A DNA stretch of 48,604 nt from Patescibacteria group bacterium UBA3458 (GTDB lineage: Bacteria; Patescibacteriota; Minisyncoccia; Phycocordibacterales; UBA2100). Below are positions 9,001 to 48,559 of this stretch, piece by piece. The first letter of the stretch is position 1. Each line of letters begins with the position of its first letter. The DNA lies in assembly GCA_002378745.1 (NCBI GenBank), contig DFRR01000005.1, positions 43,581-92,184 on the forward strand, read 5' to 3'. A program made the translations under genes and the position numbers. The notes below the pieces were generated by a model. That model was not told the DNA's origin, made no database searches, and was given only the letters and a program-made list of their open reading frames with translations.

Positions 9001-12000
9001 TAGTGCCCCAGTACTTGGGATGAATACGGGGGTTGTCGCTGAAGAAGCTGAGTTACTTACCGCTGCCCCATTTTGGGCAGTAAATCGACTAGCAAGGAAC
9101 GTGAAGTAATTGGTGCCAGCAAGCGCGATGCGGAGTTGATCATCAGCACTTTCATAAAAACCAGTGTCACCATCGCCAAATGAGAGCGTCGGTGTAGTAG
9201 CATCATTGTCGAATGTCGTACCAAGTTGCAACAATGACGTCGGTGAGGGATTGTCAATACCAATATTGCCGGAATCAGTGATAATCATTCTCGGACTAGC
9301 AAAACCGTTTGAAACACTATTCGTCTGGGTGTAAAACTCAAGAGAAGTTGGATAATCCAAACTCTGTGACCCCCAGCCACCGCCAGTACCTCGAGCAATG
9401 ATTTTTGCCCCGATCCCGTCAGAGTCGCCTCCATTCACATCCGTGTCGGCAGTGAATAAAATTTGTCCTATGATCTCTTCACTTATGCTTGAGTCTCCGG
9501 TTCTCCGGATAGACAACACTCCACCTGCTGCATTAGCTACATCAACATCGTACAGTGGGTTTGCATTCCCCACACCAACCCTGTTGTTGGTTGGATCGAT
9601 GTACAAAGTATTTGAATCAAAGTTGAGTGGGTAACTCATTGCAACAGTGGTGGTTGCATCAAGTGTGAGGGCGTTTTTGAACTGTGCAAAATCAAGTGAA
9701 TCATTGACGATGTCGAGGGTCACTGCAGCACTTTCAGTACCTGAGTTTGCAACGGTAAAGAATGAGTTACCTGCATCAGCGAGCGTTGCGAGGTAGTTGC
9801 CGGTGGTGTGCGTGCCAAGCGTAATGAGATTGTTGAGTGTGGTTGCGCCGGTACCACCACGAGCCACTGGTAACGTGCCAGTAGTGCCCGCATCAATTGG
9901 AAGCCCTGTTGCGTCAATGAGATTAAATGCTGGGGTTGCATCAGAGCCACCAAGACTGAGTGTTATACCGCCGTATGATACGGTTGAATTTGCGAGTTCT
10001 GCGTTGTCGATTTGTCCGGCTGGAAGCGACACGGTTCCCGTACTTACGGTGAGACCACCATACAAGGTTGTAGTACCAGATACGTATGCGTTACCAGACA
10101 CGGCAAACTTGGCAGATGGTGACGATGTGCCTACACCAATGTTTCCTGAGTGGGTTATGGTAAAGAGTCGAGCTCCTGCTGAACTGTCTGCAACGAGTAC
10201 GGGTGCTGTCTGTCCTGTTTTTCCGACCAACTGGAGCGTTGGGACCGTTGTGGTGCTTGAGTCATTCTGGATGTAGAACGGCTGGTTGATGTCGAAGCGT
10301 TCAGTATCTGAGTCCCAGGCTATAACAGCATTTGGTACCACGGTGCCGCGGAAGAATACGAGGTTTACGTCTTCATCGTCCGAGGTAACGTTGTCGGTGT
10401 TAATGGTAAACGAGTTGTTTGCCGTACCACCGATTGTTGTTGAAGCGGCCGAGATACTGTTTACGTTGATGTTGTCAGCGTAGATTTCATCCCAGAAGTA
10501 TGATGGCGAACCAAGGTCGCGCACCGCGTTTTGGTCTGGAATGATGTCTGAGTTGATTGCGGAGTTGATGGTGAGGGTATCGGTGTTGGTGTTTCCGATA
10601 ACGATAGCTCCACCGTCAACCGTTAGGATGCCGTTAATGGTGGTGGTCGCGAGGTCTGCACTGCCGGTAACGACGAGATTAGTCGTGGTTGCGTTGGTGG
10701 CAGTGAAGTTTGTAAAGGCACCGGTGATTGCAGTGAGAATGTTGCTAAAGAAATTTGTACTGGTTGCGTTGGTAAAGACTGCATCTGTTGCATCGATACT
10801 ATCAACTGACACCGCGCCAATGGTTGTGGTGCCAAGTGCGGTGTCACCAGTTACCACCAAGTTTGTCGTGGTTGCGTTCGTAAGTGTCGCGTTGGTTGCC
10901 GTGAGGTTGGTAAAGATGCCGGTAATTGCGGTAACAAGGTTGCTGTAGAAGTTGGTGCTCGTTGCGTTCATAAAGACTGCGTCGGTGAACGTTGCGTTTG
11001 CACCAAAGAGCGTGGTGGTGGTTGCGTAGCTCGCGATGAGTCGTGTGATGTCTGCATCGGTAATGGTTGCGTCTGTGATGGTAGTCGTCGCAAGTGCGGT
11101 AGTCCCTGTTGCAACCAAATCAGTGGTGGTTGCGTTTGTTGCAACAAGATTCGTCGTTGTAGCGTTGGTTGCGCTAAAGTTTGTAACGCTAGAAGTGACT
11201 GCAGTAAGGAGGTTTGCAAAGAAGTTTGTTGAGGTTGCATTGGTGAATACTGCATCTGTTGCAGACAAGTCAGTTACCGTTGCGTCAGTTGCCACGAGGT
11301 TGGTGGTGGTTGCGTTGGTTGCAGTGAAGTTGGTGAACGCTCCAGTGATTACCGTAAGTGCATTAGTGAAGAAATTGGTGGTTGTGGCGTTCGTGAACGT
11401 TGCATTTGCACCAAAGAGCGTAGTGGTGGTTGCGTACGTGGCAACCAAACGAGTTACATCTGCATCTGTGATGGTAGTCGTCGCAAGTGCGGTACTTCCC
11501 GTAACAACTAAGTTCGTGCTCGTTGCGTTTGTGGCGGTAATATCGGTAACGGTTGCGTTAGTAATGCTTGTTGTCGCAAGTGTTGTAGTGCCTGTTGCAG
11601 TAAGCGTGTCGGTAGTGATGTCAGACGAGGAAAGGTTCGTCGTTGTAGCGTTGGTTGCGACAAGGTTGGTGGTGGTTGCGTTGGTTGCACTGAAGTTTGT
11701 AAACGCACCTGTAATTGCGGTAAGAACGCTGCTGAAGAAATTTGTACTGGTTGCGTTGGTAAGTGTAGCGTTCGTTCCTGAAAGGTTTGTAATGGTCGCA
11801 TCTGTAATTGTTGTGGTCGCAAGCGTCGTCGTACCAGACACGGCGAGGCCACCACCGACGGTGACCACCACGCCGTCATCAATGAGGATGCTGTCTGCAA
11901 GCGCTACGCCGGTTGCGTTGAATTTTGCAATAGTGTTTGCGGTACCTGTTGCCGAAGTAAGTGCACCGAAGCCGTTAATGTGTGCAATGCCAGCACTCAA

Positions 12001-13413
12001 CGGCGTTGTAAGGGTGCCCGTATAGGTCAAATCGTTGGCTACAAGACTGCTAAAGGTTGTCGTGCCAGTAACGGTGAGTGTACCAGCGATAGTGACGTCT
12101 TCAGCAAAAGAAGCGTCATCTGCAACCGTGAGTGACGTCGCCTCAACCGAAGAGTTTCGTATACGTGAATTTGTAATGAGTACGCCGCCCAATGTGTCGA
12201 TACGCTGTGTAAGCGCAATGCTGTGGAAGTTATCACCGATATCCGTAGCATTGTCTGCTCCAACACGCGCGATTTCTTTTCGTAATTCATTTTCTGTTTG
12301 TTGTAACTGTTCGAGTGTAACGCCGCTTTGTACAACGATGCGTTCTGTCTCAACAACACGTTCGATAACCGGCTGATTTTGCACGATGGTCGTGCGCTCA
12401 GGCGCCTGAGTGGTTGTGCCTGGTATGTACACAATCCGTGCCGGTGTTGTGTTGTGTGCAGCACCAGCGTCAGCAACTGCAGTGTTTGTTTCCTGCACAG
12501 CGCGAATTTGTATGTCTACCTGGCCGCGCACATTTCCCGAGCCGATAAGGCCGGTGTTTGTAACAAGTCGGGTTCCAGCGCCGCGGAAGAATGAAATAGC
12601 AGAGTCGTATGAATTCTGAAGCCATTCAATAGCGTTTACTTGAGCAAGTACATTGCGATTGAATTCAGGTAATCGCGGGTTCACGGTAAAGGCATCGAAA
12701 GCAAGGAGCGCTTCTTCAAATACCTCGTCTGCGGTAGCGAGCGTCTGTGGTAGTGCCATTGCTACCTGTACTGAACGATCAAATGCCTGTGCGATGCGAG
12801 CAGGTGCGGCGAGGTACTGCTCGCCACTTATTGCCGTACTTCCAAATACGATTGCAAATGCGGTAAGCAGTGCAACTGTCTTCTGTCCGAATTCACGAAA
12901 TGTATCAGCAGGAACAATTGGTGTGTACGGAATAAGTGCCCGTTGTGCACGTCGCTGATCTTCTTGCTCAGCAAGCACTTTGCGGAAGTAGGTGCCGGTA
13001 ATCGGCGCTTGTGCAAACGTGTATGTGTATGGATCGAAATACGCGTACTCTTGTGCTTGTACTGCATGAGAAGCGACACGCGCTACCGGTTGTGCGACGC
13101 GCACAACAGACTGCGCTGCTGCAGCTGCAACCTTTGGCAATTCTGCTTCTTCGATTTCTTGTTCGTAGTACTCACTCTTTCGCTGCTCTGAGAGTTGTTG
13201 GAGGCGAGCAGCCTTTTCATGTTCCCGAGCAATAACAAATTCCTTCAGTGAGTTTTCTTCAACAAACCAAGAGCGTCCGACACGCTCACAGGTAAGATTT
13301 CCCTCTCGACAGAGTTTTGCAACGTAGTCAGAAGTATAGCCGGCAGTTTTGCCAGCCTCCTGAGAAGAGAAATATATTTGGTTGTTAAATGTTAAGTGTT
13401 TACTCACAATCAA
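3064..13413 (-). CDS. Giant (3449 aa) type-II membrane-anchored surface fibre protein with N-terminal cytoplasmic excisionase/MerR-type HTH
   Basis: Single open frame of 10,350 nt with a TTG start (a GTG lies 2 codons later; there is no nearby ATG). aa 14-58 (IYFSSQEAGKTAGYTSDYVAKLCREGNLTCERVGRSWFVEENSLKEF) form an HTH_17-like module. One TM helix lies at about aa 178-196 (TVALLTAFAIVFGSTAISG). A Thr/Asn repeat tract spans about aa 525-925. About 20 copies of the motif G(N/R)(V/I)G(I/V)G(T/D)xxPxx(K/L)Lx(V/L) occur. Five copies of GIGDTSPAAL(F/L)TVGNGDLFQVNSSGAIAAATGITSSGA occur. Confidence 0.85.
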   Translation of the reverse strand: MIVSKHLTFNNQIYFSSQEAGKTAGYTSDYVAKLCREGNLTCERVGRSWFVEENSLKEFVIAREHEKAARLQQLSEQRKSEYYEQEIEEAELPKVAAAAAQSVVRVAQPVARVASHAVQAQEYAYFDPYTYTFAQAPITGTYFRKVLAEQEDQRRAQRALIPYTPIVPADTFREFGQKTVALLTAFAIVFGSTAISGEQYLAAPARIAQAFDRSVQVAMALPQTLATADEVFEEALLAFDAFTVNPRLPEFNRNVLAQVNAIEWLQNSYDSAISFFRGAGTRLVTNTGLIGSGNVRGQVDIQIRAVQETNTAVADAGAAHNTTPARIVYIPGTTTQAPERTTIVQNQPVIERVVETERIVVQSGVTLEQLQQTENELRKEIARVGADNATDIGDNFHSIALTQRIDTLGGVLITNSRIRNSSVEATSLTVADDASFAEDVTIAGTLTVTGTTTFSSLVANDLTYTGTLTTPLSAGIAHINGFGALTSATGTANTIAKFNATGVALADSILIDDGVVVTVGGGLAVSGTTTLATTTITDATITNLSGTNATLTNATSTNFFSSVLTAITGAFTNFSATNATTTNLVATNATTTNLSSSDITTDTLTATGTTTLATTSITNATVTDITATNATSTNLVVTGSTALATTTITDADVTRLVATYATTTTLFGANATFTNATTTNFFTNALTVITGAFTNFTATNATTTNLVATDATVTDLSATDAVFTNATSTNFFANLLTAVTSSVTNFSATNATTTNLVATNATTTDLVATGTTALATTTITDATITDADITRLIASYATTTTLFGANATFTDAVFMNATSTNFYSNLVTAITGIFTNLTATNATLTNATTTNLVVTGDTALGTTTIGAVSVDSIDATDAVFTNATSTNFFSNILTAITGAFTNFTATNATTTNLVVTGSADLATTTINGILTVDGGAIVIGNTNTDTLTINSAINSDIIPDQNAVRDLGSPSYFWDEIYADNINVNSISAASTTIGGTANNSFTINTDNVTSDDEDVNLVFFRGTVVPNAVIAWDSDTERFDINQPFYIQNDSSTTTVPTLQLVGKTGQTAPVLVADSSAGARLFTITHSGNIGVGTSSPSAKFAVSGNAYVSGTTTLYGGLTVSTGTVSLPAGQIDNAELANSTVSYGGITLSLGGSDATPAFNLIDATGLPIDAGTTGTLPVARGGTGATTLNNLITLGTHTTGNYLATLADAGNSFFTVANSGTESAAVTLDIVNDSLDFAQFKNALTLDATTTVAMSYPLNFDSNTLYIDPTNNRVGVGNANPLYDVDVANAAGGVLSIRRTGDSSISEEIIGQILFTADTDVNGGDSDGIGAKIIARGTGGGWGSQSLDYPTSLEFYTQTNSVSNGFASPRMIITDSGNIGIDNPSPTSLLQLGTTFDNDATTPTLSFGDGDTGFYESADDQLRIALAGTNYFTFLASRFTAQNGAAVSNSASSATTPVFIPSTGALTAGVGGSGGDVSIITDGAARLYVTSSGNVGIGTTSPSSLLHVYGPSGVLTLQDSNSAQNTAVSRIDFNYNTGTNGLIGYSGSEDLLITNNHASGDILLSTNGNVGIGDTSPAALFTVGSGDLFQVNSSGAIAAATGITSSGAINFTGTLAVSGTTTLATTTATALTVSNGLTVSGGGAAITGNSTIAGTLSSLTGITSSGTITFSALTSGILRTNGSGVLSTTTINGSDVTADTLDFTEFKDALTLDATTTIAMSYPLNFDSNTLYIDPTNNRVGVGTASPNFSFQINDNTITTKKGLYVASRFGPSGAYLRPANSSGQGSSLELVANQNTTLARAWSISNPSGASSNFGLVFSSAPSSVDIDSFSYTTRMQLDALGDFSLFEEAGVNAKFFWDASAEKLGIGTTSPSAKLHILGASEQLRLSYNASAYWTDTIASDGGRTIAGFGTDADLNLNFSGATDGDFSVNTDDLFVDTSTGRVGIGDTSPAALLTVGNGDLFQVNSSGAIAAATGITSSGTITFTDTLSVTGTSTLATTTAIQLTTTGNTYLATSGGNVGVGTTSPSAKLHVNGNSIFEGSTTYINAAQDYALSGTSSGWFGLVGQSSGLGSVLAIASNDADGTDESGLVVYGFGGIGSGNRERLIVNWDVANSRYEIQSEANGTGTLRDIALFTEGNTNQLVLSSSGNVGIGDSSPAALFTVGNGDLFQVNSSGAIAAATGITSSGAINFTGTLSVTGTTTLATTTATALIASNGLTVSGGGAAITGNSTIAGTLGSLTGITSSGTITFSGLTSGILRTNGSGVLSTTTINGSDVTADTLDFTEFKDALTLDASTTINVTGSNVFSITNTGSGNSFVVNDQGSDSTPFIIDAAGNVGIGTTPGAYKLYVDGSAYVNGLITAGAVDNNGYNMLRDPNNKIFFGRAAYNSLSESNGNYAPLVRGYTNNFGGFAYYFGYKGLYASTTATGAPQGELNNGANAALFLGVNTDGSTYFSAGNVGIGDTSPSALLTVGNGDLFQVNSSGAIAAATGITSSGAISFTGTLAVSGTSTFATTTVTGDLAVNTDDLFVDTANGRVGIGTTTPSSKLTVAGAVTADSFISTSTATSTFAGGISIAGSIVPTTDNTYSLGTPSLQWQDVYIGPGSLYINGQKVIEEDASNIVVTADTNQSLHLKTAGSGDIELNPTGTGIIALKGNIQITGGKVISTSDNSLLEFEDGIQGGNLSVSGNAITATNLNGGIALTPNGSGNTYVTANNFGIGDTSPAALLTVGNGDLFQVNSSGAIAAATGITSSGAISFTGTLSVTGTTTLATTTAAEITASGNVNATRFLAASGSGASPAYSFTDDTDTGMFYSSANGGTMNFVIGGGTRFYTQGTGSYTVFNGNIFAANTSGWMLENAASSLTNPTLVPHRSSSTTGIGGDGADKLALITAGTTALTVDSSQNIGIGTTSPLAKLDVYGDMVLSGSDRYLNFGTAVGTSSYGIRDNAGTLQYKNSGGSWADLGSGGSSLTGTTGQIAYFSGTNTAVGTSTIYLAADGKVGIGTESPKSKLDVLYSDTQANPAAASLAYEPGTSHGLEVWNTSNSANYSGIYLRTRTTGASTWSINNEWKSSNSGDLTFVTRSGGSTLDERMRITNAGNVGIGTSSPFGGWTSAPDKGIHIEGDNPQLGLYDTGGGDRWGVRAASIGLSFFNDTDNEHRLLVDNDGNVGIGTTNPSAKLSLGTDITTIKVAAYDNGSIAYGMGVNGGKLTFGANIAVDGTPQAVLTSSGDFGIGVVTPTKRLSVTETVSDAQFIISYDATRYTTFQVDSTGDLIVDAYGDDVRLNDDNLWVCSGGSCPAGTPSGNGNIIAETAIGIGTSTPWTSLAIAAGGAITVEEELLTTSGTIAVDWRDGNQQLIRLTTSAATINFSGYIAGQKLSLITCSPNGSTAGAITWGTTIRWTGGTAPTQTTTADKCDVWSFLATSANGTLRIFGAQTPNFTD
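10639..11841 (-). repeat. Thr/Asn-rich degenerate tandem-repeat tract inside the giant CDS (aa ~525-925)
   Basis: Runs such as TNATSTNFFSSVLTAITGAFTNFSATNATTTNLVATNATTTNL are reiterated about five times with variation. The opposite strand shows matching V/A-rich shadow ORFs (10541..10948, 11036..12025). Confidence 0.8.
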
Positions 13414-19926: not shown

Positions 19927-19953
19927 CTATAAACTAAAGACTACCAACTCCGT
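19927..19953 (-). repeat. TAG-heptad block (minus orientation) containing the third ACGGAGTTGGTAG copy
   Basis: The minus strand reads acggagttggtagtctttagtttatag. It sits directly after the secA stop and directly before the hairpin. Confidence 0.7.
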
Positions 19954-22551: not shown

Positions 22552-22584
22552 GGAGCTTATAGTTGATAGTTTTTAGTTTATAGG
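22552..22584 (+). repeat. TAG-ending heptad block upstream of secA
   Basis: ggagcttatagttgatagtttttagtttatagg is followed by the weak hairpin aggacg(N14)cgtcct at 22582-22607. A possible secA extended -10 (minus strand tTGgTATACT, 22540-22548) lies next to it. Confidence 0.6.
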
Positions 22585-41009: not shown

Positions 41010-41845
41010 TTATCGTCAATCTAAAAGGTGGGCTTGGGAATCAAATGTTTCAGTATGCATGCGGTCGAGCACTCGCGTTACGCACCCGTGATGAGTTGCA
41101 GATTATTGCGGAAGGCCTAGAAGCAGCTAACGCTATTGGTGACCTCTATCGCCCGTTTTCGCTACAAAAGTTCGCTATCGCCGGAGAAGTAATTGGAAAG
41201 AACGAGATACCTCTATGGCATCGTTTGTATTCCCTTTTCGAACAAAAAGTCCTTCGTCGATTCTATGTACATTTTGAACCGTCCCTTTTTTCCAAGAAGG
41301 GTACGGTGTACCTCAATGGTTATTTCCAATCCGAAAAGTACTTTGCCGACTACGCTGATACAATCAGAAGGGAGCTTCGGATACAGGATCCGCTTGGTGC
41401 AGCAGCCGCTGATACCGCTTCGATAGTTACAAACGACGACGTCTCGGTGTCGCTACATGTACGGCGTGGCGACTACGTTACGCACCCAGAATTTGGTGGG
41501 ATTGCCGACGTTTCCTACTACCAACGCGCAGTTGCGAAGATGCAACAGCGAGTGCCACACGCGCATTTTTATGTTTTTTCTGACGACATCGAGTGGTGTA
41601 GAAACAACCTTGCTCTCCCAAAAGACGCGGTTTTTGTTTCCGGCACAGAAATGCAAGACTATGAGGAGCTACACTTGATGTCGCTCTGTCGCCACAATAT
41701 CATTGCCAACTCCTCTTTCTCTTGGTGGGGTGCATGGCTCAATGCCAATCCTGACAAGATAATCATCGCCCCTTCACGTTGGGCGCACGGTAAAAAAGAG
41801 AAAGATTTCCGTGATATTATTCCAGAAAGATGGATTCGGGTATGA
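41006..41845 (+). CDS. GT11 alpha-1,2-fucosyltransferase
   Basis: MIIVNLKGGLGNQMFQYA..., HVRRGDY and SSFSWWGAWLN are the conserved GT11 motifs (FutC/WbsJ type). Confidence 0.88.
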   Translation: MIIVNLKGGLGNQMFQYACGRALALRTRDELQIIAEGLEAANAIGDLYRPFSLQKFAIAGEVIGKNEIPLWHRLYSLFEQKVLRRFYVHFEPSLFSKKGTVYLNGYFQSEKYFADYADTIRRELRIQDPLGAAAADTASIVTNDDVSVSLHVRRGDYVTHPEFGGIADVSYYQRAVAKMQQRVPHAHFYVFSDDIEWCRNNLALPKDAVFVSGTEMQDYEELHLMSLCRHNIIANSSFSWWGAWLNANPDKIIIAPSRWAHGKKEKDFRDIIPERWIRV

Positions 41846-42228
41846 GAAAGGAGTTCGACAGTTGGAACAAGATCAAGAAAGAGACGGACGGCCGAACTGA
41901 CCGTCTTTTATACAAAAAGCGTGAGATACGCTGGTGTACACTCGGTGCCAATATTGGCTTTGAACAAGATGGGACCGGTAGCGGCTTTGCACGGCCCGTG
42001 CTGGTGATAAAAGACTTTAACCAACACGTCTGCCTAGTCGTCCCTCTTACTACCTCAACAAAAGAAAATCCTTACCACTACAAGATTGGAGAGATTGATG
42101 GTCAACAAGCGTCCGTTATTATTTCTCAGCTACGCTTAGTTGATACCAAGCGCCTGTATAAGAAAATTGCTACACTGAACGAGAAAAAGTTCTCCGCAAT
42201 AATAAAAGCGATCAAAGATATGCTTTGA
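41842..42228 (+). CDS. PemK/MazF-family toxin-like protein, no cognate antitoxin gene nearby
   Basis: About 128 aa. EIRWCTLGANIGFEQDGTGSGFARPVLVIKDFNQHVCLVVPLTT follows the PemK pattern (W...G.N.G.EQ.G....RPVLV......C.V.PLT). The ATG overlaps the GT11 stop (ATGA at 41842-45). Confidence 0.75.
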   Translation: MRKEFDSWNKIKKETDGRTDRLLYKKREIRWCTLGANIGFEQDGTGSGFARPVLVIKDFNQHVCLVVPLTTSTKENPYHYKIGEIDGQQASVIISQLRLVDTKRLYKKIATLNEKKFSAIIKAIKDML

Positions 42229-42292: not shown

Positions 42293-43069
42293 ATGATAAA
42301 AGAATCAGAAAAAAAGTCAAGACCGTTGGTATCTATTATAATGACTACCTACAACCGCGCTCATTTCATACGTGAGGCTATAGAGAGCGTGCTACAGCAG
42401 ACATACCAGAACTGGGAACTTTTGATTTTGGACGACGCTTCTACTGACGATACGGAACATGTTATAGACTCCTTTGTCACTGGTGATTCTCGTATACAAT
42501 ACCTCCCCACCCCACAAAATCTTGGTATTACTAAAAATCGCAACCGTGGATTGCGCGAGGCGCACGGTGAATACATTGCGATACTTGATAGCGACGACGT
42601 ATGGTGCGATGCAACCAAACTGGAGCGTCAGGTTTCATATCTTGAATCACACCCTGACGCACTACTCGTCGGCACACAAGTGAAGGTAATTGACGAAAAC
42701 GGTGCACAAGTCGGTGCTCTTGCATACAAAATTGCTGACGCGGACATTCGCAAAACCATTCTGCTGCGTAACGAGTTCGCGCACTCAAGTATCGTTTTCC
42801 GTATGTGCCCGGGTGTGCACTATGACGAAACTGTTCCCATCTGGGAGGACTATGAACTTATTCTCAATCTCGGTACCCGCGGCGCGCTCGCCAACCTCAC
42901 TGAGACTATGACGGCATATCGAAAACACTCCGGAAATATTTCAAAAGAGGATGCACTCCGTGGCGGTCGCACCCACCTTGCCATTGTACACAAATACAAA
43001 GATAGTTATCCAAACTACTACCCAGCGGTGGTAAAAGGCTACCTACGTATTCTGAAAGCGTACTTCTAG
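42293..43069 (+). CDS. Glycosyltransferase family 2
   Basis: LVSIIMTTYNRAHFIREAIESVLQQTYQNWELLILDDASTDDT... and ILDSDD. ATG 42293 is preferred over the TTG at 42242. Confidence 0.85.
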   Translation: MIKESEKKSRPLVSIIMTTYNRAHFIREAIESVLQQTYQNWELLILDDASTDDTEHVIDSFVTGDSRIQYLPTPQNLGITKNRNRGLREAHGEYIAILDSDDVWCDATKLERQVSYLESHPDALLVGTQVKVIDENGAQVGALAYKIADADIRKTILLRNEFAHSSIVFRMCPGVHYDETVPIWEDYELILNLGTRGALANLTETMTAYRKHSGNISKEDALRGGRTHLAIVHKYKDSYPNYYPAVVKGYLRILKAYF

Positions 43070-44241
43070 TGGCTCGGCATCTTTGTGACATTGGCATAAT
43101 ACAGCCGGCGGTATGCCTTTGTGGTTGCGCCGATGTGAAAAGTAAGTGAGCGTTCTTGATTCGCTTCGGCAAGCTTTGAGCGTTCGCTCTCGTTGTTCAT
43201 GAGAAACTTGAGACGCTCTTGAAAGGCTCCTTGGTCTCCCGCAGGATACACCTGTAGATCGGTGTATGGCAGCTGCTCACGCGCGCCACCGACGTCGGAT
43301 GCGAGTATAGGTATTCCAGCAGAGAGAGCCTCCAATATGGCTATAGAGAAGCCCTCGTAGCGTGAAGGCAGAACGAATAGATCAAAAGCCTTGAGGAAAG
43401 ACGCCGCCAGCGGCATCTCCCCCACTAACGTGAACCGATTTCGCACTTTTTGTGCGCGTATATACTGTTCTAACTTAGACCGCAGCGGGCCCTCCCCGAT
43501 GACACAGGCCTGTATACTTGGATTCTCGCTCTGCAGTAATGCAACTTGCTGAATAAGGAATTCGTAGTTTTTCGCCATATCAAGCCGTCCGATTGAGCCA
43601 ATAAGGAACGCGCTCTCCAATATCTCTACTTCTGCTAGTTGTGCAAGTTTTCTACGTGCTGTTGTCCTATCGAGAAAGTGTAGCTCATCGGTGCGAAGTC
43701 CGTTATGTATCACTGTAGTGGTGGTTTTTGTTAGGCGCATCTTTTTTGCAGCTTCTGCATTTGTATTACTTACAAACACCACATTGTCGACAAAACGCAA
43801 TAATGTCCGCATGACGTGTGTATACACGATTCTTACCATCGAAGAAATATCCACGCCCTCATCGAGAAACGAAAGGCCGTGTACCGTGAACACTGTTTTT
43901 GGCTTTGCCCGAGAGAGCTTTGCGCTGAGTGTTGCTACCAGCGCGTTTGAGCTGTGCATGTGGATGATATCGTATTGTTCTGAGTCGAAATAGCGTTTCA
44001 TCTCCCAGAGTGCGGAGAGATTTTTGAATGGGTTCATGCTGCGACGGAGCGCTGTGAGTCGATGTGTGCGAATACCTGCCTTGGTGCATTCTGTTTCGAG
44101 GTAGTCACCGTCGCCGAAGGCGACGGTGACTTTCTCCCCTGCTTCGTGCAAACCCTTAGCGAGATTGAGTACTACGGCTTGTGCACCACCGACAGTGCCG
44201 CGCGTTACTACGAGTAGGATATTTCTAGTTTTTTGCTCCAT
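43066..44241 (-). CDS. Glycosyltransferase family 4
   Basis: 391 aa. ILLVVTRGTVGGAQAVVLNLAKGL and LFVLPSRYEGFSIAILEALSAGIPILASDVGG (E-x7-E). Confidence 0.85.
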   Translation of the reverse strand: MEQKTRNILLVVTRGTVGGAQAVVLNLAKGLHEAGEKVTVAFGDGDYLETECTKAGIRTHRLTALRRSMNPFKNLSALWEMKRYFDSEQYDIIHMHSSNALVATLSAKLSRAKPKTVFTVHGLSFLDEGVDISSMVRIVYTHVMRTLLRFVDNVVFVSNTNAEAAKKMRLTKTTTTVIHNGLRTDELHFLDRTTARRKLAQLAEVEILESAFLIGSIGRLDMAKNYEFLIQQVALLQSENPSIQACVIGEGPLRSKLEQYIRAQKVRNRFTLVGEMPLAASFLKAFDLFVLPSRYEGFSIAILEALSAGIPILASDVGGAREQLPYTDLQVYPAGDQGAFQERLKFLMNNESERSKLAEANQERSLTFHIGATTKAYRRLYYANVTKMPSH

Positions 44242-45187
44242 AGGTTTCGAGTGTTGACGTTACCATGTCGGCAAGCGTATGCGTTGCTCTCCATGCGCTT
44301 GCGGTATGCATCTTTTCTACATCGGCAATCGCTGTGCCCGCATCACCCGCTCGTCGTGGTTGTACAACATACGGTACATCGTACCCCAGCGCTGCTGCAA
44401 ACGCCTTGATGACTTCCAGTACCGAGTGCCCCTGATTCATACCAAGGTTGAATGTGCCGTGCAGTGGCTCGTTAATGCTGTGAACGTGCGCTTCAACAAT
44501 ATCGTTGATATGTATGTAGTCACGTACCCCGGTGCCATCTGTGGTCTCATAATCGTCTCCAAACACCGTAGCTCCTCTGCCCTCGCGCACTGCCTGCGCG
44601 ATGAGCGGAAATAGATTTGCTGCTTTTTCTTCTTTGAACCGCAGCCCTGCGTCACCCGCAACATTAAAATATCTAAATATCGTCGCTGTAGTGAGCTTTT
44701 GTGTGCGCACACATTCATTAATAAGCATTTCTGCAATGAGCTTGGTGGTTCCGTACACACTGAGTGGTTCCATTGCATCTTCTTCGGAATATACCCCTGT
44801 CGCGTGTGGTTGGTACACCGCAGCAGTCGAAGAGAATATAAGGTGCGGTACGTCATGTTTTGCAACCGCTTCCAGAACATTAATGGTTCCTACCACATTT
44901 ATGCTGAAGTATTTCTCTGGATTGTGTTCACCCTCTTCTACTGACTTCCCTGCTGCAAGATGAATAACGACATTCGGCACACTCTGTGCAAAAGCAGTAT
45001 CGAGCGCCTGTGCATCTCGAATATCTCCTTCAATGAAAGCTGCGTCCTCCGAAACGGCATCACGTTTCCCTGAGGAAAGATTGTCGAATACCGTTACTCG
45101 ATGTCCTTCTGCACTGAGACGTGCAACGCACGCCGAGCCAATATAGCCGGCGCCACCAATGACGAGTATCTGTTTTGTTGTGGTCAT
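44225..45187 (-). CDS. galE: UDP-glucose 4-epimerase-like NAD-dependent epimerase
   Basis: ILVIGGAGYIGSACVARLSAEGHRVTVFDNLSSG, SVYGTTKLIAE (YxxxK) and RYFNVAG. 320 aa. Confidence 0.8.
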   Translation of the reverse strand: MTTTKQILVIGGAGYIGSACVARLSAEGHRVTVFDNLSSGKRDAVSEDAAFIEGDIRDAQALDTAFAQSVPNVVIHLAAGKSVEEGEHNPEKYFSINVVGTINVLEAVAKHDVPHLIFSSTAAVYQPHATGVYSEEDAMEPLSVYGTTKLIAEMLINECVRTQKLTTATIFRYFNVAGDAGLRFKEEKAANLFPLIAQAVREGRGATVFGDDYETTDGTGVRDYIHINDIVEAHVHSINEPLHGTFNLGMNQGHSVLEVIKAFAAALGYDVPYVVQPRRAGDAGTAIADVEKMHTASAWRATHTLADMVTSTLETYGAKN

Positions 45188-46470
45188 TTCTTTACTTCAG
45201 TGACTTCGAAGCCCTCGACGATAAGTGGCTGTTTACGCAGCAATAGCAGCGCTCCTGCTGCAAGTGTAAGTAGCGCTCCGAGCGCCAGATACCAGTATAT
45301 GTCATTTTTTGACGATTCTTTAGGCAGACTGCTTACGGCAGCTGCCGTCTGCTGAGTGGTTGTCGATACCTGCTCTACAGGTGCTGCTTCGGGCGTTTGG
45401 GGTGTGTTGGCTGATATGTCAGTGGTATTTGATCGCGGCACGCTGGTGCCAAGCACTGTGGATGCCGGTGTTTTCTGTGCTTGCGCTGAGGTTGTTGTGG
45501 TAGTAGTTGCAATGGTGGTGGTCGCTTGTGTGAGTACGTCTTCCTCGTCACTTGCTACTTCGCCCACTACGGCAATTGCATTGTCTGGGAATCGTAATGC
45601 TGCTTCTTGGGTGGCGCGAAGAAAACTGAGGCCAGTGACATCTGTGGCGAACCGAACTACTTTAAGTGGCGCAATAAACGTGTGCTCAGGAATGATGAAG
45701 TATTGCCCGTTGCTGGTAATGCGCCAACTGGAAAGATTGAGTTCGTATTCGCTTCCGTTTCCAATGGCTACCCATTCGCCGTCTTCGGCAATGGTGAGCG
45801 TTGCTACAAGCGGCACTACTGTCGCCTGTATGTGTTGCTGGTCGGTGAGCGAGCCACTTTCAAGTGTTGCGGTTACCGTATATTCGCCTTCGTATGCAAA
45901 TTGGTGACTGACTACTCTGCCCGTGCCGGCACTGCCGTCGCCAAAGCTCCACGAGACGGTGCCGCCCGTAAGGGCGGCACCGGTTGCGTCGTAACTCTCT
46001 GCGACGAACTCGGTAGATGCACCGACAGTGGTCACGATGTGCTCGGGCACGCGCAGGTATACATCTTGTGGCGGCTCAATGGTGACCGTCTCGTATTGGT
46101 ACTGGGTAATGGTATTAAACACAGTCTCCGTTGGCGTCTGCGCCTGTGTAGTTGTTGCAGCATCACTGGTATTCTGTGTTGTTTCGCCGACGGTGATGTG
46201 ATCTTTTATCTTAACGAATGTCGATTCCCAAAGTCGGTCAATCGTTGGGTGTATAATCTGCTCAATAGTAGTGAATGGACCATGTGCCTCACGATAATCG
46301 ACAATGCGTTCCGCGAGTGTCGTACCAATACCTTCCAGTTCTTTAAGTGTTTCTACATCAGCAGTATTGATATTAATGAGCGCGCCGTCACCGTGTGCTG
46401 CATGACTGAGCGCAGGCACACCGGTTGCTACAAAAACGCACAGGGTAAGCACTGTGACCACCCGGCGCAT
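45184..46470 (-). CDS. ComEA-like helix-hairpin-helix DNA receptor fused to PKD and lamin-tail domains, C-terminal TM anchor
   Basis: Signal peptide MRRVVTVLTLCVFVATGVPALSHA. HhH segment ININTADVETLKELEGIGTTLAERIVDYREAHGPFTTIEQI. PKD segment VSWSFGDGSAGTGRVVSHQFAYEGEYTVTATL. LTD-like segment GEWVAIGNGSEYELNLSSWRITSNGQYFIIPEHTFIAPLKVVRF. Thr-rich linker. TM helix IYWYLALGALLTLAAGALLLL. Confidence 0.8.
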   Translation of the reverse strand: MRRVVTVLTLCVFVATGVPALSHAAHGDGALININTADVETLKELEGIGTTLAERIVDYREAHGPFTTIEQIIHPTIDRLWESTFVKIKDHITVGETTQNTSDAATTTQAQTPTETVFNTITQYQYETVTIEPPQDVYLRVPEHIVTTVGASTEFVAESYDATGAALTGGTVSWSFGDGSAGTGRVVSHQFAYEGEYTVTATLESGSLTDQQHIQATVVPLVATLTIAEDGEWVAIGNGSEYELNLSSWRITSNGQYFIIPEHTFIAPLKVVRFATDVTGLSFLRATQEAALRFPDNAIAVVGEVASDEEDVLTQATTTIATTTTTTSAQAQKTPASTVLGTSVPRSNTTDISANTPQTPEAAPVEQVSTTTQQTAAAVSSLPKESSKNDIYWYLALGALLTLAAGALLLLRKQPLIVEGFEVTEVKK

Positions 46471-46472
46471 AC

Positions 46473-48131
46473 TTACTCGTCGGTATCGAGAAGCTTTTTA
46501 AGTACGTCGCGCGGCACTTCCCCTCTTGCGTGTTGCGCATCGCTTTCTGACTGACTCGCCTTAGTTTGTGCTGCCTCTTTCGATATCTCTACTTCCGGCT
46601 CGGTATCGACGACGGCTTTGGCTTGCTGTGTGTTTTGTATGATACCTGCGAGTGCTGCGCGTAAGTTTTCGCGGTCGTTCTTCTCAGGCGCCGAATGGTG
46701 TACGCTACCCTCTTTTTGTTCGGGTTTTGGTGCGGGGGTAGCGTCAGACGTTGCCTGCGGTTCGCCTCCTCCACCTTTTTTCTTCTTTTTCTTCTTTTTC
46801 TTTTTGTTGAGGTTTTCGAATCCGCCCGGACTTAGCAATGCATCGATGGAGCCGATACTTTTCTCAACGCTTGTGCGTGAGCGTCCGTATGTTTCTCGTG
46901 AACGCGCGATGATTTGATCTACGAAATGCACCGCCGGGTCTTCAACTGGTGGTAGTGTGGTGGCAGAAAACGGTTGCGAACCGATACCGTTTATCATGAG
47001 TGTGAGGTAAATTTGGGCGAACCCGAGGTTCACTAAGTCTTCAGCGAAGAATGTTGGTTCGAAAATGGTTTTGAGTGTTTCGGCGTCAAACGGACCAACG
47101 CGGAATGCGATGGTGGTGCCGACGTTGCCGAACACTGCCGCGCGAATGTTCTCCTCAACCTGCTCAATATATTGGTGTGCAATAGTGAGTGAGAGCTTGT
47201 ATTTACGTGCTTCTGAGAGAATGTTGGCGAACGAGTCGTTTACCACCGACTGAAACTCGTCGACGTATAAATAGAACGGTGGCAACTTTGCGATACCTTG
47301 TGCCGACTCTTCAGCACGACTCATCGCTGCAAGATAGATTTTCGTGGTGAGCATACTTCCGAGCAAATCGGCATTTTGCTCGCCCATGCGCCCTTTTGAG
47401 AGGTTGACGATGAAGATTTTACGCTCGTCCATTATTTTGCGTAAATCGAAAGTGGACTTTGGCTGTGCGATGATGTTGCGCACCAGTGGGTTGGACGCGA
47501 ACTGCCCTATCTTGTTCTGGATTGCCGGCGTTGCTTCCTGTGTGTAGCGGTCGGTGTAGCCCAAGAATTCTTCAACCCAGAAGCGCTTCACGATTGGGTC
47601 GGTGATGTACTCGATCACTTTGTTGCGAAACTCTTTGTTAACGAGCATACGGTTCACATCGATGAGGGTACTGTCGGGGTACTCAAGCAATGCAAAGAGC
47701 ACATTTTGTAAGATGTACTCCATACGTGCAGACCACGCATCTACCCAGATGCGCTGGAATGAGCTCATGAGCCCGGCCACCACGAGATGTCGCTTGTCGT
47801 AGCCGACGTCCTCCATGACGTTGAACCCTACCGGGTAGTCGACATCAAACGGTGCAAAGTATATAACGTCGTTGATGCGTGACTCGGGTACGTACTCGAG
47901 TAGCTTCTCGGCTGTGGTGCCGTGCGGGTCAATAAAACAGAGACCGTCACCGTTTTGGATATCTTGAATCGCCATGTTTTCGAGCAAGGTAGATTTACCC
48001 ATACCCGTCTTTCCGATGACGTACATGTGACGCATACGGTCGACGGCGCGAATACCGAATGGCGTCTTTTTGTTGCGTGAGTCAGTAGCCGCAAAGTACG
48101 TGACGCGTTGTGGGTCGTACTCGTATTCCAT
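46473..48131 (-). CDS. Soluble VirD4/TraG/TraD-like (T4SS coupling-protein-type) P-loop ATPase with disordered Lys/Gly-rich C-terminus
   Basis: Walker A VIGKTGMGKSTLL, DPHG, Walker B PFYLYVDEFQ, and LSLTIAHQY. No TM helix. K10-G4 tract near the C-terminus. ATG 48131 is preferred over GTG 48152 because TATACT lies 7 nt upstream. Confidence 0.8.
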   Translation of the reverse strand: MEYEYDPQRVTYFAATDSRNKKTPFGIRAVDRMRHMYVIGKTGMGKSTLLENMAIQDIQNGDGLCFIDPHGTTAEKLLEYVPESRINDVIYFAPFDVDYPVGFNVMEDVGYDKRHLVVAGLMSSFQRIWVDAWSARMEYILQNVLFALLEYPDSTLIDVNRMLVNKEFRNKVIEYITDPIVKRFWVEEFLGYTDRYTQEATPAIQNKIGQFASNPLVRNIIAQPKSTFDLRKIMDERKIFIVNLSKGRMGEQNADLLGSMLTTKIYLAAMSRAEESAQGIAKLPPFYLYVDEFQSVVNDSFANILSEARKYKLSLTIAHQYIEQVEENIRAAVFGNVGTTIAFRVGPFDAETLKTIFEPTFFAEDLVNLGFAQIYLTLMINGIGSQPFSATTLPPVEDPAVHFVDQIIARSRETYGRSRTSVEKSIGSIDALLSPGGFENLNKKKKKKKKKKGGGGEPQATSDATPAPKPEQKEGSVHHSAPEKNDRENLRAALAGIIQNTQQAKAVVDTEPEVEISKEAAQTKASQSESDAQHARGEVPRDVLKKLLDTDE

Positions 48132-48138
48132 GGTGGTA

Positions 48139-48144
48139 AGTATA
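48139..48144 (-). promoter_or_regulatory. TATACT box 7 nt upstream of ATG; a -35-like GTGACA lies 17 nt further upstream
   Basis: The minus strand reads taGTGACActatagttagtgctgggTATACTtaccaccATG. Confidence 0.45.
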
Positions 48145-48146
48145 CC

Positions 48147-48180
48147 CAGCACTAACTATAGTGTCACTAAGTTAGTGCTG
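48147..48180. promoter_or_regulatory. 11-bp perfect inverted repeat bracketing the -35 of the ATPase promoter (candidate operator)
   Basis: cagcactaact (48147-57) and agttagtgctg (48170-80), with a 12-nt loop. Confidence 0.5.
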
Positions 48181-48193
48181 GGTGAATCGTACT

Positions 48194-48227
48194 CGAGTTG
48201 GTAGTTGATAGTTTGTAGTTGATAGAA
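48194..48227 (+). repeat. TAG-ending heptad block (best copy)
   Basis: cgagttggtagttgatagtttgtagttgatagaa. After the first base there is no C for 33 nt. TTGATAG/TTTGTAG/TTGATAG have a 7-nt period, which places TAG in all three frames. Confidence 0.75.
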
Positions 48228-48277: not shown

Positions 48278-48463
48278 TCATCTGCTGGCGAGAATCGGCA
48301 ACAGGAAGATGAGTACGACCAGCGCAAGCCAACTGAGAGTCTGGCTTGAGACGGTAACGAAGCGACTGAACCACAGAAACATGCTTTTGAAGCCGTCTTC
48401 GGCGGTTACTTCAAGGCGTGGCGTCCTCTGTGGGATATCATCCCCTTTTCTCGACTTTCTCAA
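48278..48463 (-). CDS. Small (61 aa) basic protein with C-terminal TM helix, unknown function
   Basis: TTG start preceded by GAGGAGGAG (48467-75). TATACT-like box at 48497-48502. A terminator hairpin lies 7 nt past the stop. Hydrophobic tail SWLALVVLIFLLPILA. Confidence 0.45.
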   Translation of the reverse strand: MRKSRKGDDIPQRTPRLEVTAEDGFKSMFLWFSRFVTVSSQTLSWLALVVLIFLLPILASR

Positions 48464-48530: not shown

Positions 48531-48559
48531 TGAGTTGGTAGTTTGTAGTTGATAGTAAG
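48531..48559 (+). repeat. TAG-ending heptad block
   Basis: tgagttggtagtttgtagttgatagtaag is C-free and shares gagttggtag and tttgtagttgatag with the 48194 copy. Confidence 0.75.

Follow-up and report, generated by a model that had tools for sequence, protein, structure and literature searches.

A coupling-protein-family ATPase and a modular surface protein form a conserved gene pair in Paceibacteria, suggesting a part in DNA capture or import

The first two genes of a four-gene operon, which encode an ATPase of the type IV coupling-protein family and a modular surface-anchored protein, are a conserved pair in Paceibacteria (ultra-small CPR bacteria). Comparative evidence suggests that this pair is an undescribed part of DNA capture or import in these organisms. 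To our knowledge, this surface partner has not been described before. The operon lies on the minus strand, as do all features given below, of a 48.6-kb stretch of DNA analyzed as a whole (the window), which the initial annotation had correctly attributed to CPR bacteria.

ORF analysis of the window gives the gene order ATPase, 428-aa surface protein, epimerase, and GT4. A 2-nt spacer separates the stop codon of the ATPase gene (ending at 46473) from the start of the next gene (46470); the surface gene (45184..46470) overlaps the epimerase gene (44225..45187) by 4 nt, and the latter overlaps the GT4 gene (43066..44241) by 17 nt. These coordinates bear out the gap, both overlaps, and the tight operon that had been read from the sequence, with the pair at the head of sugar-modifying genes. 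The surface gene is probably translationally coupled to the ATPase gene. The third gene encodes a GalE-like NAD-dependent sugar epimerase/dehydratase (Epimerase 6.5e-53), and many related loci have an SDR gene in the corresponding place. The final gene encodes a GT4 glycosyltransferase (Glycos_transf_1 1.2e-30), is convergent with plus-strand glycan genes, and has family members downstream in 57 of 80 loci. The ATPase ORF (46473..48152) spans 559 aa from a GTG, but translation probably begins at the ATG at 48131, giving 552 aa in agreement with database entry P0001, instead of the 550 aa given earlier. A promoter-like site, GTGACA-17-TATACT (48139..48167), identified by consensus match only, ends 8 nt before this ATG and falls within an inverted repeat; the region holds four sites of this type versus 4.9 expected.

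The ATPase (46473..48131) matches the Pfam models TraG-D_C (1e-6) and TrwB_AAD_bind (1.6e-5), both only slightly above their cut-offs, and NCBIfam concurs. In a PDB sequence search, TrwB was the sole match passing the E-value threshold of 0.001. Foldseek returned DotL (8e-10), Cagβ (2e-8), TrwB (5e-7, TM-score 0.63), and HerA (5e-7); the protein models as a coupling-protein or HerA-type NTPase and not as the unrelated NTPase that would have counted against the initial annotation. Its Walker A motif GKTGMGKS (aa 40-47, 47991..48014) aligns to the TrwB P-loop, with G40, K41, G43, G45, K46, and S47 invariant and T42 and M44 conserved at ≥90% in 56 sequences. The Walker B motif FYLYVDE (aa 286-292, 47256..47276), in which V290, D291, and E292 are invariant, aligns to the corresponding TrwB region. 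Since no 19-residue window exceeds a Kyte-Doolittle value of 1.6, the ATPase has no membrane segment, in line with the anchorless protein proposed at the outset. The Lys10-Gly4 run described there as a tail is present but internal (aa 443-456, 46764..46805). It sits in a disordered basic linker and is followed by 96 residues that end in a conserved helix. The codons of the Lys run mix AAA and AAG, so it is not a homopolymer, and relatives carry different basic low-complexity linkers at this position. The amphipathic C-terminal helix, E-V-P-x-x-V-L-K-K-L-L (aa 538-552, 46476..46520; residues 541-548 in the structure model), has conserved E538, L544, and L548, and its motif is kept regardless of which gene comes downstream. 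More than 8000 homologues share 58-86% identity, and the core of ~430 aa is nearly invariant in this very large Patescibacterial family, which spans many Paceibacterial lineages. Such a core is unlike that of coupling proteins of mobile elements. The gene is located among housekeeping genes.

Profile searches and an AlphaFold model confirm the proposed anatomy of the surface protein: signal peptide, HhH, PKD, lamin-tail-like domain, Thr-rich linker, and C-terminal anchor. The N-terminal hydrophobic helix (aa 1-24, 46399..46470), read as a signal peptide, reaches a Kyte-Doolittle maximum of 2.1 at aa 4-22 and is modeled as a helix at residues 2-21; an A-x-A-like site ahead of the HhH is conserved. 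The ComEA-type HhH domain (aa 31-93, 46192..46380) scores above the curated cut-offs of both HHH_3 (7.7e-17) and TIGR00426 (1e-15) and matches B. subtilis ComEA 8dfk at 2.3e-12; on these matches it is a genuine ComEA homologue. The label "textbook" needs correction, however: the first GIG hairpin is intact, but the second hairpin is degenerate, reading HPTIDRLWE where 16 of 17 aligned relatives have NVSGIG and one has NVQGIG. A frameshift is not the cause. A disordered stretch (aa 97-127 of the model) separates the HhH from two Ig-like domains, each with pLDDT >90. The first is a PKD domain (aa 137-219, 45814..46062; PKD_4 1.7e-9; TM-score of 0.73 to the ColG PKD). The second is a lamin-tail-like β-sandwich, LTD (aa 223-305, 45556..45804; 2.9e-5), whose score of 24.8 bits is below the Pfam cut-off of 34.3. 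A disordered Thr/Ser/Ala-rich stalk follows (aa 310-387, 45310..45543; pLDDT about 30), with 21 Thr among the 83 residues 306-388; the adjoining glycosyltransferase genes make it a candidate O-glycosylation target. Hydropathy and the model agree on a C-terminal membrane helix (aa 390-411, 45238..45303). Beyond it lies a short cytoplasmic tail of 17 aa, RKQPLIVEGFEVTEVKK (45187..45237), with an acidic motif; comparable acidic tails (EWDIVEE, EEFDIE, DGFEIVEE) occur in 21 of 49 partners. The surface protein is fast-evolving, in contrast to the very conserved ATPase.

The pair is syntenic across Paceibacteria in both directions, an outcome in favor of the initial annotation, which had proposed a check of synteny. 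In 49 of 80 species genomes, the gene that immediately follows the ATPase encodes an anchored protein with PKD and LTD. Reciprocally, the ATPase lies directly upstream in 13 of the 16 metagenome HhH-PKD loci with enough upstream sequence (two more are cut by contig ends), and the gene contexts of P0132 and P0129 agree with the pairing. The ATPase was found beside none of 52 loci matched via the HhH region alone (classical ComEA-type; 54 minus the incomplete contigs L112 and L117). The 2-nt spacing or an overlap between the two genes recurs in distant lineages. Where the surface gene is missing, as in about a quarter of the loci, the ATPase directly abuts SDR/epimerase or GT4 genes. The block as a whole keeps the order Mur ligases-RsmI-small ORF-DUF4015-ATPase-(partner)-SDR-GT4, so adjacency may owe something to a gene order inherited within a single class.

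The conserved part of the pair is not the HhH, which only 10 of 49 partners carry (~20%). An LTD replaces it in about 36 of the 49 (Pfam 1e-17 to 1e-29), and a second LTD stretch scored in five of 10 relatives scanned. Both partner types are interspersed on the ATPase tree, with the HhH type in at least four separate clades. This repeated exchange of HhH and LTD points towards DNA. LTDs recur in extracellular DNA enzymes: a ΔLTD form of ExeM has reduced in-vitro activity (PMC6085458), and LTDs occur in a DNA-degradation locus of Izemoplasma (PMC8289736) and in ComEC-like and Hvo_1477 proteins (PMC5118699). The bacterial LTD may serve in membrane or envelope targeting.

A Saccharibacterial ATPase, either a paralogue or an orthologue, is 47% identical over a 449-aa core. 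This long form is membrane-anchored, with N-terminal membrane helices and a fused DUF8128 region of ~350 aa. In 6/6 contigs it lies in a dprA-...-topA-σ70_r4/HARE-HTH-ATPase block; seven prepilin-type genes follow it in one contig, and it faces a murG-ftsW-mraY-pbp cluster in three of the six. The dprA-topA linkage at family level points towards DNA; because dprA-topA is a common bacterial pair, the linkage may be incidental.

The best reading, to which we assign a probability of about 40%, is a surface DNA receptor with a cytoplasmic motor that assists DNA uptake. The ATPase is a cytoplasmic P-loop NTPase of the VirD4/TrwB family without the usual N-terminal membrane domain; its partner is exported via Sec and fixed in the membrane through a C-terminal helix. 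The long Thr-rich stalk, which is probably glycosylated, and the two Ig domains would hold the ligand-binding head off the cell, that head being a ComEA-type HhH for dsDNA binding here and a lamin-tail domain in most relatives. We infer that extracellular DNA reaching the cell surface is captured by this head and that the two proteins are in contact: the ATPase may be recruited to the membrane via the short acidic tail of the receptor, via the basic linker and amphipathic helix of the ATPase itself, or both. As a ring motor, it would then pull or handle DNA entering via a channel encoded elsewhere, most likely ComEC, taking the motor role of Firmicutes ComFA. ComEC-dependent uptake moves ssDNA, and we know of no coupling protein shown to work with ComEC. 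As first reported for ComEC and pilus genes, a search of the window's main ORFs and of 10 kb of upstream sequence from the same contig found no comEC, pilin, or T4SS gene, and no comFC is present in the window or contig flank. ComEC is encoded in most Patescibacterial MAGs and ComEA in some only (PMC13293708), and ComFA is absent from a list of conserved Patescibacterial com genes (PMC10633639). The DNA-capture or uptake module put forward initially finds partial support. Pair synteny, the coupling-protein fold, the HhH/LTD exchange, and the dprA-topA block favor it, whereas the rarity of the HhH among partners, its degenerate second hairpin here, and the frequent position of the ATPase directly before epimerase or GT4 genes do not.

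The ATPase could instead be the true coupling protein of the chromosomal monoderm-type (MPF-FATA-like) T4SS widespread in Patescibacteria, encoded away from virB4, an explanation that we consider improbable but worth weighing. Its task would be to recruit substrates, either protein or DNA, for export into a host cell, with the surface protein as an adhesin or contact factor. The top structural matches are indeed coupling proteins, Pfam and NCBIfam concur, and the tandem Ig ectodomain is similar to adhesion molecules. TraJ, the coupling protein of the monoderm system pIP501, likewise has no membrane domain and relies on a partner for tethering. Moreover, T4SS genes are common in Patescibacteria, coupling-protein genes can be far from virB4, and orphan VirD4-like genes have been noted there previously; however, only 148 of 5,713 Patescibacterial homologues are near virB4, and relaxases are rare (PMC12102498). 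S. epibionticum can grow without the coupling-protein homologue, as it can without comEC, comF, or dprA, whereas other T4SS genes are essential (PMC12102498, PMC10633639). The lack of T4SS genes in the window and 10 kb upstream extends to the conserved neighbor families of the 80 loci, and a secretion role would leave the extreme conservation and the ComEA/LTD heads without explanation.

It is also conceivable, if doubtful, that the pairing is positional and not mechanistic, both genes belonging to an inherited cell-envelope block. The surface protein would then be a component of the envelope or a stalk that carries glycans and uses its head to bind DNA or matrix, serving in adhesion or in the scavenging of nutrients without any ATPase, and the ATPase would act separately in the cell wall, division, or chromosome handling. 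The conserved block order fits this, as do the abutting SDR/GT4 genes in partner-less loci, the murG-ftsW-mraY-pbp cluster facing the Saccharibacterial form, the C-terminal ATPase motif kept with or without the partner, and the Sec signal of the partner, which requires no dedicated ATPase. Recurrent tight spacing across distant lineages argues against it, and HhH-PKD genes seldom occur without the ATPase in the reciprocal test. At least one CPR genome encodes a canonical FtsK and so already has a septal DNA pump, and we know of no envelope pathway that uses a coupling-type ATPase. Finally, an anti-phage or conflict role as a mad8 (MADS) relative acting with the surface protein and a "conflict-type" GT4 is already unlikely, indeed hardly credible: the best profile match across all libraries is PADLOC mad8 (2.6e-17, aa 30-358) and the GT4 touches the GT4-conflict model (1.9e-7), but the latter spans just 44 residues of a generic GT4, partner and GT4 have no PADLOC match, no methyltransferase, nuclease, or other MADS gene is nearby, and near-universal presence, extreme conservation, and a fixed housekeeping context are the opposite of defense islands.

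Returning to the receptor-motor reading, the pair resembles several known systems in part. Like type IV coupling proteins (VirD4/TrwB/TraD/DotL/Cagβ), the ATPase has a P-loop nucleotide-binding domain with an inserted all-α domain and, as in TraD, a disordered C-terminal tail that has a conserved peptide at its end. It differs in lacking the N-terminal membrane domain, in having no link to virB4, relaxase, or mobile element, and in having a surface receptor as partner instead of a relaxosome; compared with plasmid coupling proteins, it is chromosomal, its core is far more conserved, and its Pfam scores are barely above cut-offs. The Saccharibacterial DUF8128-T4CP shares its extreme conservation and orphan status with respect to virB4 but has the membrane helices and DUF8128 that the window ATPase lacks, and a dprA-topA-σ70_r4/HARE-HTH context in place of a surface receptor and GT genes. 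ComEA and the surface protein share a homologous HhH, export, and membrane anchoring, and the latter is predicted to hold dsDNA at the surface. Unlike ComEA, the 428-aa protein carries its HhH as one head alongside PKD, LTD, stalk, and C-terminal anchor; the second hairpin is degenerate, and among orthologous partners this head is exchanged for an LTD. The gene of the surface protein lies outside any comE operon containing comEC and has the ATPase gene as its partner. With ComFA, the ATPase would share only the proposed role, that of a cytoplasmic NTPase pulling incoming DNA at the inner membrane face; the folds are unrelated, ComFA being a DEAD-box helicase and the window ATPase a member of the FtsK/HerA/VirD4 class. 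ExeM/NucH, Hvo_1477, and ComEC-like MBL proteins carry an exported LTD beside DNA-handling modules, as does the partner family, in which LTD and ComEA HhH share one N-terminal position, although the surface protein, unlike these enzymes, has no nuclease domain.

Four minus-strand genes lie head to tail, with the ATPase gene first and the gene for its surface partner directly behind it. The ATPase reading frame (48152..46473) likely starts at an ATG at 48131, yielding a 552-aa protein identical to the database entry P0001. The partner gene (46470..45184; 428 aa) begins 2 nt past the ATPase stop codon and overlaps an NAD-dependent epimerase gene (45187..44225) by 4 nt. This gene in turn overlaps by 17 nt a GT4 glycosyltransferase gene (44241..43066), which is convergent to the plus-strand glycan genes. 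Upstream hairpins and a promoter-like site suggest that the ATPase gene is the first of the transcription unit. The preceding DUF4015 gene is terminated by a strong hairpin with a T-run (48604-48573, minus strand), and a promoter-like GTGACA-17-TATACT on the minus strand, a match to consensus only, ends 8 nt 5' of the ATPase ATG. If this -10 box is real, the ATPase transcript would be nearly leaderless. Between the DUF4015 and ATPase genes sits a 61-aa ORF (48278-48463, minus strand) that has a Shine-Dalgarno sequence and a hairpin terminator of its own and whose product carries a hydrophobic helix at the C-terminus; it has no Pfam match, and L002, an 82% relative, has a 58-aa counterpart of similar sequence.

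Two repeated elements occur in the same upstream region. A near-perfect inverted repeat at 48140-48185 (minus strand; cccagcactaact...agttagtgctggg) overlaps the promoter-like site directly 5' of the ATPase start codon and could act as an operator or form a 5' structure. A 22-nt motif, TATCAACTAnAAACTAyCAACT, is present in four copies versus zero expected by chance (three or fewer mismatches), all intergenic: 48203-48224, 48533-48554, and 22561-22582 on the minus strand and 19928-19949 on the plus strand. These positions are upstream of the ATPase, the small ORF, and secA, plus the secA 3' end. The motif also occurs upstream of the ATPase in L002 and could serve this lineage as a promoter or operator element.

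A large glycan cluster, including Wzy-TPR, Wzx, GDP-mannose dehydratase, and several glycosyltransferases, fills 23.4 to 45.2 kb. Within it, a MazF/PemK-type toxin gene (41830-42228, plus strand; 6.7e-16) overlaps the tail end of the GT11 gene before it, and no antitoxin was identified for it. The remaining window holds housekeeping genes (secA, obg, gatB) and, adjoining them, a single 3449-aa ORF (3064-13413, minus strand) with no Pfam family at E < 1e-4. The source contig derives from a beach-sand metagenome; its next 10 kb in the upstream direction carry Mur ligase, RsmI-like methylase, and DUF4015 genes. As the initial annotation had noted for ComEC and pilus genes, no comEC, pilin, or T4SS genes were found in the window; Rfam and tRNA scans of the window also gave no matches.

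The assignment of the ATPase to the VirD4/TraG/TraD type holds at the level of both sequence and fold. Pfam matches to TraG-D_C (1e-6) and TrwB_AAD_bind (1.6e-5) are weak but coherent, NCBIfam gives partial TraD and VirD4-like matches far under their cut-offs, and TrwB alone falls within the E-value threshold of 0.001 in a PDB sequence search. The monomeric AlphaFold model has an overall pLDDT of 73, with blocks across residues 51-290 mostly averaging 82-95 and one at 69. Foldseek aligns this model to DotL (8e-10), Cagβ (2e-8), and TrwB (5e-7; TM-score 0.63), each with a probability of 1.00, followed by HerA (5e-7) and a VirB4-type chain (2e-4); nothing beyond these five was retrieved at an E-value below 0.1. 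Walker A (GKTGMGKS, aa 40-47) and Walker B (FYLYVDE, aa 286-292) align to the TrwB motifs. Across 56 sequences, G40, K41, G43, G45, K46, and S47 of the former and V290, D291, and E292 of the latter are invariant. TrwB_AAD_bind matches aa 40-353, and in the model a helical block (aa 111-235) lies between the two Walker motifs, corresponding to the all-α inserted domain.

We also agree that the protein has no membrane anchor: the 19-residue Kyte-Doolittle maximum is 1.35, with no window above 1.6, and its start lies close to that of the soluble TrwBΔN70 fragment. The 430-aa core is followed by a disordered basic linker containing a K10G4 run (aa 443-456), then a short LRxAL helix and a conserved amphipathic helix, EVPxxVLKKLL. 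The mixed AAA and AAG codons of the K10 run rule out a slippage-prone homopolymer.

This ATPase belongs to a very large family. A database search returned more than 8000 homologues with 58-86% identity, which NCBI calls [quoted passage not shown]; those named are labelled Kaiserbacteria, Pacebacteria/Paceibacterota, Minisyncoccia, or Parcubacteria and Patescibacteria groups. At least 588 GTDB species genomes match, as do 7067 representatives of 50%-identity clusters at E < 1e-30. Long forms of about 750-1200 aa, in which N-terminal membrane helices and a DUF8128 module of ~350 aa precede the core, are numerous among these representatives. Most named long forms are labelled Saccharibacteria; in the core, they share 47% identity with the window ATPase. 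The DUF8128 module was not matched as a separate gene near the short, soluble form in the 80 GTDB loci described below or in the window. Two further homologues, P0293 (1210 aa) and P0259 (814 aa), have unusual layouts, one with two tandem coupling-type cores and one with a C-terminal S1 RNA-binding domain.

The partner is a modular surface protein. Its AlphaFold model shows a signal helix (aa 2-21), a helix-hairpin-helix (HhH) domain (aa 31-93), a disordered stretch (aa 97-127), two Ig domains with pLDDT above 90 (a PKD at aa 137-219 and a lamin-tail-domain (LTD)-like one at aa 223-305), a disordered Thr/Ser/Ala stalk (aa 310-387), and a membrane helix (aa 390-411), which leaves a cytoplasmic tail, RKQPLIVEGFEVTEVKK, at aa 412-428. 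PKD_4 scores 1.7e-9 (38 bits, cut-off 27), the WSFGDG motif is conserved, and the β-sandwich superposes on a ColG PKD with a TM-score of 0.73. The LTD match (PF00932; 2.9e-5) reaches 24.8 bits, below the gathering cut-off of 34.3, and a confident Ig fold is modelled there. A fold search of the surface protein gave generic tandem Ig and PKD matches, which are uninformative on function.

The initial annotation described the HhH segment as a textbook ComEA domain, and this is correct for the family assignment and the first hairpin. HHH_3 (7.7e-17; 61.6 bits, cut-off 27) and the TIGR00426 ComEA HhH profile (1e-15; 57.5 bits, cut-off 53.1) both score above their cut-offs, the segment matches B. subtilis ComEA in its DNA-binding domain (8dfk, 2.3e-12), and the first hairpin is intact (EGIG). 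The second GIG hairpin, however, is replaced by HPTIDRLWE, whereas it is retained in each of the 17 aligned relatives, as NVSGIG in 16 and NVQGIG in 1. A compensated frameshift was ruled out, as the GIG hairpin is absent from all alternative frames.

We compared 80 GTDB loci by using iterated HMM searches and all-against-all clustering. An anchored PKD and LTD homologue is the gene directly 3' of the ATPase in 49 of them and lies ~0.8-1.5 kb farther downstream in 3 more; in another 4, the contig ends. Most of the 49 adjacent partners (about 36) carry a strong N-terminal LTD (Pfam 1e-17 to 1e-29 at aa 20-140), while 10 have an HhH head, 2 another Ig-like head, and 1 (L020) no head assignment. 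Among 10 partners scanned, the N-terminal LTD scored 33.8-100 bits in 9 (L006 being 0.5 bits under the cut-off) and was absent only from L021; 5 have a second LTD stretch. A neighbour-joining tree of the ATPase cores, built without support values, places HhH-type partners in at least four separate clades amid LTD types and, taken at face value, therefore indicates repeated head exchange.

The pairing is also recovered from the partner side. A metagenome scan with the HhH-PKD alignment found 25 loci matching beyond the HhH. Sixteen of these have 1.7 kb or more of upstream sequence, and the ATPase is directly upstream in 13 of the 16; in 2 others its 3' end is visible at the contig edge. By contrast, only 2 of 54 loci that match in the HhH region alone (classical ComEA-type) have the ATPase, both on truncated contigs with a cut partner gene. 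Two database relatives of the partner carry the same gene block; the most divergent relative, P0138, lacks the block, any detected LTD, and a clear C-terminal membrane helix. The association first seen in a single genome is real and far beyond chance.

Part of this adjacency is nonetheless inherited with a conserved envelope and glycan block, and the ATPase and partner could be independent neighbours within it, which we consider unlikely. On the upstream side of the ATPase, genes for Mur ligases, an RsmI-like methylase, DUF4015, and a small ORF are found repeatedly; on the downstream side, 57 of 80 loci have a GT4 family. Many partner-less loci have an SDR epimerase or GT4 gene adjoining the ATPase. 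Between loci, the GT4 and the epimerase that follow the ATPase have only paralogue-level identity (22-40%), save for two loci with a 47-49% epimerase; the gene class is conserved, but the exact gene is not. The DUF4015 putative glycoside hydrolase (about 420-430 aa, 4.7e-85) occurs in 39 of the 80 Paceibacterial loci, 1-3 genes upstream in 36 of the 39, and an unannotated conserved protein of ~87 aa recurs upstream in 28 of 80.

We further observed that the C-terminal motif of the ATPase (EVPxxVLxxLL, FEVPExxLRxILKG, or LxPKxLERMMRV) co-varies with how the partner ends, either in an acidic tail (EWDIVEE/EEFDIE) or with a stop after the membrane helix. The two proteins may touch, or the pattern may come from shared phylogeny alone; because these explanations are inseparable, we do not use the co-variation as evidence.

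The Saccharibacterial long form has a different context. All six contigs examined (L167-L172) share the order dprA, zero to three small genes, topA, zero to two small genes, a σ70_r4/HARE-HTH gene, and the ATPase, with the last two genes 46-214 nt apart. In L170 (9745-15227), the ATPase is directly followed by a run of seven prepilin-type (N_methyl) genes. A convergent murG-ftsW-mraY-pbp neighbour is present in 3 of the 6, and in a fourth murG lies ~7 kb downstream. Genes for Cas9 and an Apyc1-like anti-Pycsar protein also lie close by in L167.

Patescibacteria cannot synthesize nucleotides, and natural transformation occurs in at least some of them. Three independent observations tie the ATPase family to DNA uptake parts, and we propose, with a probability of about 0.4, that a surface DNA receptor and a coupling-type ATPase together aid DNA uptake. 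The partner would take DNA outside the cell, and a ring of the ATPase at the cytoplasmic face of the membrane would help bring it in through a channel whose gene lies elsewhere. Candidates for recruiting the ATPase to the membrane are the acidic cytoplasmic tail of the partner, found in 21 of 49 partners, and the basic linker and amphipathic terminal helix of the ATPase itself. This mechanism is the most economical because of the ComEA head, the LTD head in the same position, and dprA (once also pilins) adjoining the long form. The same heads and the dprA linkage strengthen the DNA-capture idea of the initial annotation, which stays conjectural. We set the probability no higher because we infer every functional step and because three facts run contrary to a machine made strictly of these two proteins: only a minority of partners have the HhH head, which is degenerate in the window partner, the partner is absent from about a quarter of genomes, and the adjacency is partly inherited.

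According to the literature, LTDs accompany extracellular DNA enzymes. ExeM works more slowly in vitro once its LTD is removed, one protein encoded in an Izemoplasma DNA-degradation locus combines nuclease, nucleic-acid-binding, and LTD domains, and haloarchaeal ComEC-like and Hvo_1477 proteins also have LTDs. Most MAGs encode ComEC, but only some encode ComEA (PMC13293708). The Patescibacterial uptake machinery named so far consists only of ComEC, ComFC, DprA, and type IV pili; the conserved com genes are ComEC, ComFC, and DprA, with ComFA unmentioned, and they are dispensable for growth, with transformation needing comEC (PMC10633639).

The fold matches would also suit a coupling protein that serves a Patescibacterial T4SS remotely, a reading we regard as improbable. 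No T4SS or relaxase genes were found in the window, in the 10 kb upstream, or among the recurrent neighbour families of the 80 loci. Of 5,713 VirD4-like homologues in 2,918 Patescibacterial genomes, just 148 have virB4 nearby, and relaxases are seldom found; S. epibionticum does not need its homologue, whereas other T4SS genes are essential, and exaptation of orphan VirD4-like genes to another function is held possible (PMC12102498). This dispensability matches com genes rather than T4SS genes and so lends further support to DNA uptake. A defence ATPase (mad8 of MADS) is extremely improbable and was rejected on gene context: the PADLOC mad8 profile matches at 2.6e-17, but it is the only profile of the 8-gene mad operon, with its methyltransferase and partners, to do so, and the neighbours are housekeeping and glycan genes.

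Returning to DNA uptake, a broader and rather doubtful extension is that the Patescibacterial family is the missing cytoplasmic motor of competence or DNA-scavenging uptake rather than a secretion component, soluble in Paceibacteria and DUF8128-anchored in Saccharibacteria. The Paceibacterial partner would then be a modular, glycosylated surface DNA receptor with a ComEA-HhH or LTD head, and the alternation of heads would give bacterial LTDs a role in DNA binding. We know of no description of a coupling-type ATPase importing DNA beside a Com-type system, which is what the uptake hypothesis, if true, would provide, along with a functional clue for bacterial lamin-tail domains. The ATPase-receptor pair is undescribed in the literature searched (lamin tail domain with ComEA; Parcubacteria with VirD4/TraG). 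The hypothesis is directly testable in Southlakia or Nanosynbacter, where transformation-based genetics works. Even if it fails, the family is among the most conserved Patescibacterial proteins without known function, and this orphan VirD4-like family gains two genomic partners, a ComEA/LTD-headed surface protein in Paceibacteria and the dprA-topA block in Saccharibacteria.

These results place both proteins beside, but not within, known systems. The partner shares the HhH DNA-binding domain with ComEA but departs from it in its 428-aa build with PKD, LTD, stalk, and C-terminal anchor, and the full-length profile TIGR01259 reaches only 49.4 bits versus a cut-off of 152. ComEA is encoded in a comE operon with comEC, whereas no comEC lies near the partner gene in the window. 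The partner is therefore not a ComEA by architecture or context, yet it holds a genuine ComEA HhH domain. The ATPase, likewise, has the FtsK/HerA-class P-loop and inserted all-α domain of type IV coupling proteins but neither their N-terminal transmembrane anchor nor their T4SS (virB4)/relaxase linkage, and for these reasons the most fitting description is an orphan subfamily derived from coupling proteins.
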